Notes: generated from the letters alone by a model not told the origin. Shown: positions 34,709 to 64,000, counted from the stretch's first letter. The stretch: 64,000 bases of DNA from a virus (IMGVR_UViG_3300028888_001547:42599-106598); one strand, 5' to 3'. A program made the numbers and translations.

Positions 34709-34811
34709 CGCGTGGTGACGGAATCGAACCGCCAACAGGTGCCTCCTTCACTTGCCGCCACAACGCGTTTGCAAGCACTTGTCTCCCGCTTTACCATTAA
34801 GCTAACCACGC
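34709..34811 (-). ncRNA. tRNA-like RNA with enlarged, non-canonical anticodon arm
   Basis: Acceptor GCGTGGT/ACCACGC, D arm AGCTTAATGGTAAAGC, T arm GGCGG-TTCGATT-CCGTC; central region of ~50 nt. Confidence 0.6.
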
Positions 34812-44876: not shown

Positions 44877-44953
44877 TGGTTGCCCAGTCCGGTTCATCTC
44901 CAGATCTTCCGGGGTTAGAGCCCGACGTGCTAGGAATCATACACCACTAAGCA
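44877..44953 (-). tRNA. Amber suppressor tRNA (anticodon CTA, probably Gln-charged) with non-canonical D/T loops
   Basis: TGCTTAG/CTGGGCA acceptor (U1:A72), GTGT/GCAC D stem, TCGGG-CT-CTA-AC-CCCGG anticodon arm, TCTGG-AGATGAA-CCGGA T arm, encoded ACCA end. Confidence 0.85.
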
Positions 44954-61774: not shown

Positions 61775-62275
61775 TCCTGCGACAACCCCGAGCCTTTGAG
61801 CCAGTGGTTGCTCATGTGGTGAATAGAGAGGAGCTATATGAGGGACAGCCTACCACATTTAAAGGATGAAATGACATTCTGGACAAGAGTCAGAGTATGA
61901 GAAAGGATTATACTACTAGTGGAAATATTTTGTATAAGAATTCAAAATGGTTATTTAACCTGATAGACACACCAAACAAGTCGGTTTACCGGAGTGAGGT
62001 GTATTGACAGCGTTATAATTACATATAATTCTAATGTACATAATACAGAAACTAGTAGTTCCTTTCTATGTTACGCGAACCACGTCCGCAGGTAAGCAGT
62101 GAGCCAACGCTGTTAAAATATATTGGACCATTTGATCAAATCACTGTTGTGTCTGAGCCATTGAGCCGGTGCACCTTGTCCTCGAGGGGACTATATAAAG
62201 ACACTGCACAACATATCAAGAATGTGAACTATATACTATGTGCGAGCCTTCGAGCCAGAGCATGGTCAATGTAGA
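61775..62275 (+). ncRNA. Candidate structured ncRNA with repeated GAGCC-N3-GAGCC loops
   Basis: Motif at 61790, 62155 and 62244, each closed by a different stem; long-range complementarity. Confidence 0.5.
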
Positions 62276-62475
62276 ACATTTAAGGTGATGTTATAAGCGA
62301 TTTGAAGCGTCGTATATCCTTGAGTGGGCCAGCTACCCACAAGAGGCTAGAAAACGCGTCAGAGAGCCTGTAAATAGCCTTAAATTGGATTTTCCAACTG
62401 ATCATTGGGAGATTCAGCTGGGTTGCAGAGTAGTATTAACCATATACTCAATTTGACAAACTGCAACTAAAGAAA

Positions 62476-62750
62476 TCTTAGCGGTCTGAGGTATTTCGTT
62501 CGGACGAGGGTTCGAATCCCTCCGGGTCCACGGCAAGTCCCGAGTTCTATCTGTCACATAGAGCGAATAAGGGGTGACTATCTACGCAGCCCACTCGTAG
62601 GCCTCATGTGGGCATTCCGGGCTCGACAGGATTTTGACGGGCGGAGGAAGTAAAGACGTTAACGCTTTGATATAAAATTAAACGGCGATATGAACATCGT
62701 TGACTATACGGGCCTCAAGGAGGCAGCGTAAAGTCGGTGAAGGCTACCTA
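62476..62750 (+). ncRNA. ssrA: Two-piece (circularly permuted) tmRNA
   Basis: 3' tRNA-like half (GGACGAGGG-TTCGAAT-CCCTC-CGGGTCC-A, ends 62530) precedes the 5' half (GGGCTCGACAGGATTTTGACGG from 62619); G3.U70 pair; tag ORF 62684..62731 GDMNIVDYTGLKEAA-TAA; outer boundaries approximate. Confidence 0.85.
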
Positions 62751-62759
62751 AGTGCCTGA

Positions 62760-62817
62760 GAGTGAAAAGGAGACACTGGATTAACTCCAGGGTGGGTTCG
62801 ACTCCCACCATCACTCC
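62760..62817 (+). ncRNA. Truncated tRNA-like element
   Basis: GAGTGA/TCACTC stem, CTGGA-TTAAC-TCCAG hairpin, GGTGGG-TTCGACT-CCCACC T arm; no D arm. Confidence 0.5.
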
Positions 62818-62932
62818 TATGTGATAAAACGTGGACTGGCCAGAAAGAGGGAAAATGACACTTCCAACCTTCATTATCACAGAACATCCTCAGAGACCTC
62901 CAGGCCAGGAGAACATGTGAATCTGAGGATAA

Positions 62933-63012
62933 GGGCCTATAGCTCAATTGGCAGAGCTTGTACTAGTGAAGACTTAAGTGTCTGACGTTGGGTTCGAATC
63001 CCACTAGGCCCA
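62933..63012 (+). tRNA. tRNA-like RNA with irregular anticodon arm (isotype unassignable)
   Basis: GGGCCTA/TAGGCCC acceptor, canonical D arm and T loop, but no 5-bp/7-nt anticodon arm. Confidence 0.55.
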
Positions 63013-63147
63013 CTAACGTGGTAGCGAGTTTGAAGTAACATACGACGACTGAGTGAAAAGTGCGCACGAGTAACTGAACTAAGTGTATGTGAGATAAAGA
63101 AAAGCTTTAAAGTGTATCCGGCTGATTCCGCCACGTATTTTAACATT

Positions 63148-63738: not shown

Positions 63739-64000
63739 ATGATAAGCGTATTTACCAATTATTTGAGTCCCTATTACGAGATGGGACTATTGCCCGAAGT
63801 AGAGAAGCCAAGTGATATCTATGATCAGCTGCGTATCGCATACAATCAAGGCGCACCGGTGATTAATACCACTAGAATGGTAACTCTATTTAATGATGAC
63901 GAAGATTCTTATGATATAATAGAAGCAATATGGTCTGAACCAAAATTAGTATACTGGCTAAGATGGGTCAACAGGAAAATAACATTAGAGATAGGAATAC
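63739..64000 (+). CDS. Hypothetical protein (partial, runs off window)
   Basis: ATG 63739 (MISVFTNYLSPYYE), open to the window end. Confidence 0.5.
   Translation, partial: MISVFTNYLSPYYEMGLLPEVEKPSDIYDQLRIAYNQGAPVINTTRMVTLFNDDEDSYDIIEAIWSEPKLVYWLRWVNRKITLEIGI

Follow-up and report, generated by a model that had tools for sequence, protein, structure and literature searches.

The DNA analysed here (the window, 64,000 nucleotides, which form the final part of a 106,598-bp virus record rated complete by CheckV) comes from a crAss-like phage of the sheep gut that carries a permuted tmRNA gene. tmRNA is the chief ribosome-rescue system of bacteria, and to our knowledge its phage copies are rare and unstudied. 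From the sequence and its comparison with relatives, we consider it very probable that the locus is an ssrA gene which is circularly permuted and functional, in a crAss-like phage of the Suoliviridae type. The anatomy, the purifying selection on structure and tag, the distribution in relatives and the presence in RNA libraries support this reading directly, and from these we infer processing, charging, use of SmpB and tagging. The gene is not new but belongs to an annotated, undescribed family: a tmRNA label is already present in the RefSeq records cr272_1, cr273_1, cr7_1, cr124_1, cr130_1 and cr131_1, and in the literature searched we found neither a paper describing the crAss two-piece tmRNA nor an experiment on any member of the family. 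The new points are a covarying pseudoknot downstream of the tag, a tRNA-like minihelix, a paired insertion in helix P2d at the strain level, a division among phage families between one-piece and two-piece forms, and a weakened link to stop-codon recoding.

The sequence-only reading had placed the tmRNA 3' module upstream of the 5' module on one strand, the two joined by a seven-pair acceptor stem with the alanine identity pair, and all of this is seen in the sequence and in a permuted call by ARAGORN (Table 1). The tRNA-like domain is present as a 7-bp acceptor stem on a T arm with a GGTTCGAAT-type loop, and the acceptor pairs include G62621.T62527 (G3.U70) and T62623.G62525. Helix 2 had also been drawn essentially correctly, with GGGCGGAG pairing to TTTCGTTC as P2a in eight pairs, four of them G.U. 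P2b is AGAC/GTCT in the window and ATAC/GTAT in relatives, and P2d has the form GCRY/RYGC, preceded in the family by a conserved ATTAA bulge. The acceptor piece is tabulated at its minimum extent, and its 5' end possibly lies farther upstream than 62480. CCA is un-encoded at the locus, where ACGG follows the stem; it would need to be attached once the RNA has been cleaved, in the same way as for the tRNA genes of the phage. The segment between the modules varies from 17 to 103 nt in relatives of the window's clade, where its sequence is common to the closest relatives only, and the spacer reaches up to 192 nt in Bearivirinae-like copies.

Table 1. Features of the permuted tmRNA locus and its flanks (window positions).
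Feature	Position	Strand	Basis or comment
Conserved structured non-coding region	61775-62475	+	Conservation and covarying stems in the family loci examined
Acceptor piece, minimum extent	62480-62530	+	Sequence, ARAGORN, Rfam alignment, helix covariation
P2d 3' strand	62480-62483	+	In acceptor piece
P2b 3' strand	62484-62487	+	In acceptor piece
P2a 3' strand TTTCGTTC	62494-62501	+	Followed by GGAC
T arm GAGGG, loop TTCGAAT, CCCTC	62506-62522	+	Sequence
Acceptor 3' strand CGGGTCC	62523-62529	+	Sequence
Discriminator A	62530	+	Sequence
Intervening segment between modules, 88 nt	62531-62618	+	Presumably removed by cutting at both piece ends
Coding piece, predicted ends	62619-62759	+	3' end placed from the tRNA-like element starting at 62760
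Acceptor 5' strand GGGCTCG	62619-62625	+	Sequence
D-loop analogue, ends TTTTGAC	to 62638	+	Sequence
P2a 5' strand GGGCGGAG	62639-62646	+	Followed by GGAAGTAAA
P2b 5' strand	62654-62657	+	In coding piece
GTTAA bulge	62658-62662	+	In coding piece
P2d 5' strand	62663-62666	+	In coding piece
Resume context TAAAC	62679-62683	+	Sequence
Tag frame GGC...TAA, GDMNIVDYTGLKEAA and TAA	62684-62731	+	ARAGORN; substitution pattern in relatives
H-type pseudoknot after tag	62736-62757	+	Covariation
tRNA-like minihelix	62760-62817	+	Fold; equivalents in relatives

Pseudoknot 1 is absent from the locus, with only about 17 A/U-rich nucleotides between P2d and the resume codon, and in place of the full pseudoknot set (1 upstream, 2-4 downstream) one small downstream pseudoknot is supported. 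Because accepted tmRNAs with reduced pseudoknot sets exist, we do not count this shortfall as excluding the locus from the tmRNAs. The anatomy is, as far as it can be read from sequence, that of a working tmRNA that would rely on the AlaRS, SmpB, EF-Tu, RNase P, 3' nuclease and CCA-adding enzyme of the host. A one-piece reading, in which the 5' end at 62619 would pair with a T arm downstream at 62790-62817, was discarded for lack of complementarity between the strands.

ARAGORN reported the same tag within outer coordinates 62441-62822, which are fixed flanks and not RNA ends. In a permissive Rfam scan of the window, the locus aligned end to end with RF04321 (tmRNA_permuted), the family into which RF01849-RF01851 (alpha, beta and cyano two-piece tmRNA) have been merged. 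The alignment is full-length but its score of 39.3 bits (E 4e-6) does not reach the gathering score of 47 bits, and at gathering thresholds the scan returns tRNAs only. Among relatives, 17 of 27 records lie above the gathering score (49-72 bits), and an RF04321 match is found in 22 of the 23 with completeness of at least 90%; the family passes the model and the window's copy falls short of it. The score alone is insufficient, because standard one-piece tmRNAs of Bacteroidota reach 29-41 bits on RF04321 through their 5' halves. The beta_tmRNA model gives a local match confined to the tRNA-like domain (30.5 bits against a cut-off of 84), and the alpha and cyano permuted models give no match at the locus. 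The family is under-called, since the window's copy lies below the Rfam cut-off and several relatives are missed by ARAGORN.

To the evidence from models we add that from covariation. Homologues were collected with IMG/VR pattern scans, ARAGORN and a script, which together revealed the same arrangement in over 20 crAss-sized contigs of 84-105 kb, and 19 related loci were aligned with MAFFT under a hand-specified structure. In this set the pairing cells are 87.4% paired, compared with 67.8% in shuffles, changes on both sides occur in 23 of 35 pairs, and the covariation score is 0.495, compared with 0.14 in shuffles and at most 0.14 when the partners are slid. The pairing of the locus is far beyond chance. 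Five nested helices covary (acceptor stem, T arm, P2a, P2b and P2d). Pairs are retained in 96% of cells in the acceptor stem and in 100% in the T arm, with both-side changes present, and P2a, P2b and P2d are 81-96% paired, with both-side changes in 13 of their 16 pairs. Relatives use seven different acceptor stems (GGGCTCG/CGGGTCC, GGGCGTG/CACGTCC, GGGCCTG/CAGGTCC, GGGCGAT/ATCGTCC, GGGGATG/CATCTCC, GGGGCTG/CAGCTCC and GGGCCAT/ATGGTCC), across which the third pair is always G.U and G3.U70 is invariant (19/19 sequences). A thermodynamic co-fold of the two pieces recovered the acceptor stem and the T arm and missed P2, so that the case for P2 is a comparative one. At the level of strains, those represented by the RNA runs X5 and X13 have two insertions, a T after 62483 and a G after 62662, and the strains of X2 (RNA) and X1 (a DNA run) have neither; this paired insertion is the gain or loss of one P2d base pair.

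The frame that follows TAAAC on the plus strand encodes GDMNIVDYTGLKEAA and ends in TAA, as had been claimed, although the description of the tag as typical was wrong, since it ends in KEAA where hosts have ALAA. In the tag core, six codons reading N-I/V-V-D-Y-T, all six third positions vary among relatives, first- or second-position variation occurs at three sites only (the residues being I, V, F or A), and the codons for N, D, Y and T show synonymous change only. The stops in relatives are TAA or TGA at the same place. By this substitution pattern the frame is under coding selection, and it would be translated or is at least selected as coding. Two types of tag are found: ...N[IV][VA]DYTGL[KQ]EAA in the window, L014, L007, L017 and cr272/273, and ...N[IV][VI]DYT[HCN]VA.

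These results bear on a reading in which the locus is a non-functional 3' tmRNA fragment, left from an integration site and lying by chance beside a tag-like frame. In its favour, tmRNA genes often serve as integration sites and their 3' fragments can be carried by phages (PMC9004378), and the copy in the window lies below the Rfam cut-off, but the two halves covary across at least 19 loci with G3.U70 invariant, the tag is under coding selection, and the gene is kept in all but one of the 23 complete close relatives. Conservation and covariation strongly disfavour such a leftover, which we regard as highly improbable next to a functional permuted gene.

The tag ends of crAss phages (KEAA, QEAA, HVA, CVA, NVA, RIAA and RVAA) all differ from those of the nine Bacteroidota host tags read by ARAGORN, every one of which ends in ALAA or AMAA. 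Since the tag is without the host ALAA end, degradation of the tagged peptides cannot be assumed, and an altered fate for them is a live alternative. The RNA might then mainly compete with host tmRNA, its tag replacing the ALAA degradation tag and so redirecting or blunting quality control, either because it is non-degradative or because a different protease or adaptor reads it. The conservation of the VDYT core at the protein level is in line with this, and a tmRNA-like RNA of phage DS6A that is without a coding frame has been reported to inhibit host tmRNA (PMC11915505). However, the non-polar ends VA and AA are possibly still read by C-terminal proteases, and the tag retains the host-like G-N/D start and, in its shorter form, a Tyr six residues from the end. 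We consider competition as the main role of the RNA unlikely.

Presence in RNA libraries is seen in contigs from three sheep-gut metatranscriptomes, which span 62356-62728 with the intervening segment included; the two X2 contigs listed over this interval have no mismatches. These data are assembled contigs, blind to RNA ends and open to DNA carry-over, and contigs across the spacer fit either a precursor or carried-over DNA. Contig breaks at 62498 and 62527 were rejected as RNA ends because the T-arm sequence there is common to many organisms. An X5 contig that ends at 62530 and continues directly into Illumina adapter was not counted, the stretch being shared and assignment to the phage impossible.

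Downstream of the tag, the pseudoknot has stem S1 formed by GGTG (62736-62739) with TACC (62745-62748) and stem S2 formed by AGGC (62741-62744) with GCCT (62754-62757), with TAAGT as loop 3. Over 15 distinct sequences 94% of its cells pair, with both-side changes at all four pairs of S2. S1 occurs as GGTG/TACC, AGTG/TACT and CGTG/TACG, with A-U replacing G-C in three distinct sequences and, in L023, C-G replacing it. The minihelix behind it consists of an acceptor-like stem, in which GAGTGA (62760-62765) pairs with TCACTC (62811-62816), a single hairpin, and a canonical T arm whose loop is TTCGACT (62797-62803). An equivalent element of 42-81 nt stands behind the pseudoknot in nearly all relatives, with a covarying acceptor stem of 6 or 7 bp (mostly 7), and in L014, the closest relative of the window, a real tRNA-Met abuts the pseudoknot instead. 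On the simplest reading, the minihelix is probably an RNase P cutting mark that fixes the 3' end of the coding piece.

Upstream of the acceptor piece, the conserved region at 61775-62475 holds no convincing gene. Hairpins with loops of the form GAGCC-NNN-GAGCC lie at 61790, 62155 and 62244, and at no other place in the genome; the five-letter loop word is clade-specific, GAGCC in the window and GTATC, GAATC or ATGCT in other clades. The region also holds a long-range helix, an inner hairpin with loop (A)GTAGCTAA, a hairpin GTGGG/CCCAC with loop CCAGCTA at about 62325-62341, and a 13-bp hairpin at 62385-62417 whose palindromic loop CTGATCA is unique in the genome and which is conserved in most relatives. 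A conserved GATCA box lies near 62125, about 270 nt upstream of the CTGATCA hairpin. Pairing of the GAGCC-type words with the 5' acceptor strand was rejected as a general rule, the two being complementary in the window and two other clades and not in several others. The region may be part of the tmRNA transcript, either extending the acceptor piece at its 5' end or serving as a leader, or it may be a separate RNA linked to the gene. It is also a candidate for a relocated pseudoknot domain; a profile of the region against one-piece tmRNAs gave nothing better than shuffled sequences did.

On our preferred reading of a functional gene, host tRNA-processing enzymes would cut the precursor after A62530, with CCA addition to follow, before G62619 and before the element at 62760. 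Two pieces would result, the acceptor piece and a coding piece about 141 nt long, and pairing in the acceptor stem, P2a, P2b and P2d would join them. G3.U70 would direct charging by the host alanyl-tRNA synthetase, and SmpB and EF-Tu of the host would deliver the RNA to ribosomes stalled on broken or nonstop mRNAs. Reliance on host SmpB is expected because no SmpB gene was found in the complete 106.6-kb genome. Translation would resume at GGC 62684 and append (A)GDMNIVDYTGLKEAA. The likely benefit to the phage would be free ribosomes during infection, and a tag of its own that decides the fate of the rescued peptides.

The phage was correctly described as stop-codon-recoding, with TAG read as sense in its late genes. 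The long minus-strand frames (genome 20-85 kb) are open only with TAG as sense; one late-strand frame of 15,261 nt contains 59 TAGs, and in-frame TAGs number seven in the terminase gene and eight in the portal gene. In-frame TAG is almost absent from the plus-strand block that carries the tmRNA and several tRNA genes, and the tmRNA gene thus stands in a standard-code block, beside tRNA genes and not among the recoded genes. A CUA anticodon loop is seen at window 44877-44953.

Some further observations concern the ends of the record and its tRNA-like genes. The first 224 bp of the genome recur at 106375-106598 (window 63777-64000), which reflects a terminal repeat or else an overlap left when a circular map was assembled. 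At window 62933-63013 a tRNA-like gene scores 40 bits on the Rfam tRNA model, has 25 nt where an 18-nt anticodon arm would be expected, and is called by ARAGORN only with introns allowed (Leu, taa, 9-nt insert); in cr273_1 a normal tRNA-Leu(taa) lies downstream of the tmRNA. With introns allowed, ARAGORN also calls odd tRNA-like genes at genome 15402-15713 and 16018-16095 and at window 34709-34811 (minus strand), one of them with a 219-nt insert; that at window 34709-34811 is a tRNA by Rfam (43.8 bits) despite its length of 103 nt.

We sampled four terminase clades of Crassvirales. Terminase genes of the window's clade contain in-frame TAGs in 78 of 80 cases (2-14 each); besides the permuted matches given above for its complete genomes, one-piece forms over the cut-off number 0/4. 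Bearivirinae-like phages (relatives of cr6_1) have terminase TAGs in 80/80, a strong permuted match in 12 of 26 genomes with 3 weaker ones in addition, and no one-piece form over the cut-off (0/26). Steigviridae (relatives of cr85_1) have terminase TAGs in only 3/80, no permuted form over the cut-off (0/30) and a one-piece tmRNA over the cut-off in 14/30, with 57-76 bits on RF00023 and the tags GNTSYRVAA, DNTSYRVAA and GNTSYKVAA. In Intestiviridae (relatives of cr110_1) terminase TAGs (0/27), permuted forms (0/13) and one-piece forms (0/13) are all absent from the genomes sampled. Within Steigviridae, the cr85_1-related L445-L451 have no terminase TAG and carry a one-piece tmRNA of about 384 nt beside tRNA-Arg and tRNA-Trp genes. 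L198 and L200, whose terminases are 85% identical to that of the window, are fragments with no in-frame terminase TAG and may be non-recoded close relatives. L245 (97,758 bp, rated complete) alone among the complete close relatives gives no match to the permuted model, the gene being either lost or too divergent for the model.

A role in the TAG code switch, in which the tmRNA would rescue ribosomes stalled at UAG or on ribozyme-cut mRNAs, had been suggested in the sequence-only reading; a tmRNA specific to the switch might also rescue ribosomes that run off TAG-ended mRNAs after the suppressor tRNA has been made. The TAG-rich late frames accord with it, as does the recoding of all 49 Suoliviridae-type genomes tested, 34-37 of which have a permuted tmRNA, and E. 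coli without RF1 shows tmRNA activity at unassigned UAG codons (PMC6207430). The tie is weakened, however, because non-recoded Steigviridae carry a tmRNA and about half of the recoded Bearivirinae-like genomes have no detectable one (a permuted form is detectable in only 12-15 of 26, and 11 give no match at all). Moreover, the link of the permuted form to recoding comes from a single clade, so that relatedness alone could explain it, and the gene is placed outside the recoded block. What remains is a clade-level coincidence of the permuted form with recoding, and we think it improbable that the tmRNA serves the code switch specifically.

The functional gene that we favour has its closest known counterparts in the RefSeq crAss records, where cr272_1 and cr273_1 (Suoliviridae, Oafivirinae, Buhlduvirus), and likewise cr7_1, cr124_1, cr130_1 and cr131_1, have the same permuted family and order as the window. 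These copies have the same T arm, homologous tags (GNINVVDYTGLQEAA in cr273_1) in a tag region that is 83.6% identical, a tRNA-Met downstream, and the conserved upstream region in common with the window. The acceptor stem shows compensatory changes (GGGCTCG/CGGGTCC in the window, GGGCGTG/CACGTCC in the RefSeq copy). In contrast, their intervening segment is unrelated to that of the window, where there is also an additional hairpin, about 50 nt long, at 62421-62470, and the RefSeq records give a bare tmRNA label with arbitrary ends from ARAGORN.

The two-piece tmRNA of Alphaproteobacteria (Caulobacter) goes back to Keiler, Shapiro and Williams (2000), as cited in PMC9004378 and PMC11915505. Bacterial two-piece tmRNAs, which also occur in a betaproteobacterial lineage and in cyanobacteria, share with the window's gene the permuted order, a tRNA-like domain built from two strands, G3.U70, and a tag frame after the 5' module. 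The window differs from them in matching the beta form only locally and below threshold (30.5 against 84 bits), and in the absence of pseudoknot 1, the un-encoded CCA, the tRNA-like element at the 3' end, a host phylum with one-piece tmRNA, and a resume context of the Bacteroidales type. Two-piece tmRNAs have also been published from marine phages, the OM43 phage Melnitz and pelagimyophages among them; they make up 53 of 133 unique phage tmRNAs, and 50 of those 53 come from marine or aquatic samples (PMC9004378). They are likewise phage-encoded, permuted and detected by ARAGORN, whereas they are alphaproteobacterial-like and have a glutamine riboswitch, and the window's form, which is built differently, comes from Bacteroidota phages of the gut or rumen. 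The 2025 tmRNA database searched RefSeq viruses and counted 79 phage sequences (PMC11915505). Among IMG/VR viral contigs we also observed permuted tmRNA genes outside this family (L002, L004 and L013, of 75-129 kb, and L005, L009, L015, L019 and L011), some of which encode CCA, with tags ending in VAVAA, ALAA or IAA; L005 and L009 have an apparent small ATG frame within the intervening segment.

The premise that tmRNAs of Bacteroidota are normally one-piece was confirmed, as none of 151 sampled genomes passes the permuted model, and the best 6 of 21 sub-threshold matches are 5' halves of standard genes. The host genes are one-piece tmRNAs with 134-149 bits on RF00023 and tags that include GENNNYALAA, GNNEYALAA, GETSYALAA and ANYNYALAA. 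A pattern scan of bacterial genomes found the tmRNA family in none of the at least 120 loci listed, which are chance matches, and is uninformative on bacterial carriers. The phage resume context, TAAAC-GGC or TAACT-GGC, matches that of Bacteroidales host tmRNAs, and TAAATTTAACT-GGCAAC in the phage nearly equals AAATTTAATT-GGCAAC in a Prevotellaceae host. The Steigviridae one-piece gene and the Bearivirinae-like two-piece gene have an identical acceptor stem (GGGGCAT/ATGCTCC), a common 14-mer across the resume point (ATAACTGGCAATAC), and the same tag start, GNTSY (GNTSYVMDYTRLAA in Bearivirinae-like phages, GNTSYRVAA in Steigviridae). The one-piece genes of Steigviridae phages and Bacteroidales hosts have ATAACT-GGCAAT and GNTSY as in the Bearivirinae-like two-piece form, and they differ from the two-piece genes in their standard order, length of about 384 nt and full pseudoknot region; the one-piece tags are GNTSYRVAA in the phage and GETSYALAA and GNNEYALAA in hosts. 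By overall identity of the 5' module, the phage, host and other permuted groups cannot be told apart (0.45-0.82 in all but one pair), and for this reason the argument on origin draws on specific shared features only.

These shared features favour a permutation inside the phage lineage, from a one-piece gene of the Bacteroidales type, and make it plausible that the gene arose independently of the alpha, beta and cyanobacterial permuted lineages. The suggestion of an independent permutation in a crAss-like phage is to that extent plausible, given hosts with one-piece tmRNA and Steigviridae with a one-piece form that has the same acceptor stem and a related tag. The crAss family would then be a fourth lineage of two-piece tmRNA, borne by phages. 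As the hosts and a sister phage family have one-piece kin of the gene, the route to permutation would be traceable by comparison, and the non-host tag and apparent dependence on host SmpB would make the system experimentally approachable in cultivable Bacteroides-crAss systems. A joint reading, which we put forward only speculatively and consider rather unlikely, is that the permutation arose inside Crassvirales from a host-derived one-piece gene and that the region of about 700 nt with GAGCC loops belongs to the same RNA or particle. If so, far from being minimal, the phage RNA would be a rescue system that has been rebuilt, has a tag and a partner of its own, and is adapted to a phage with TAG recoding and cleavage of its own transcripts.
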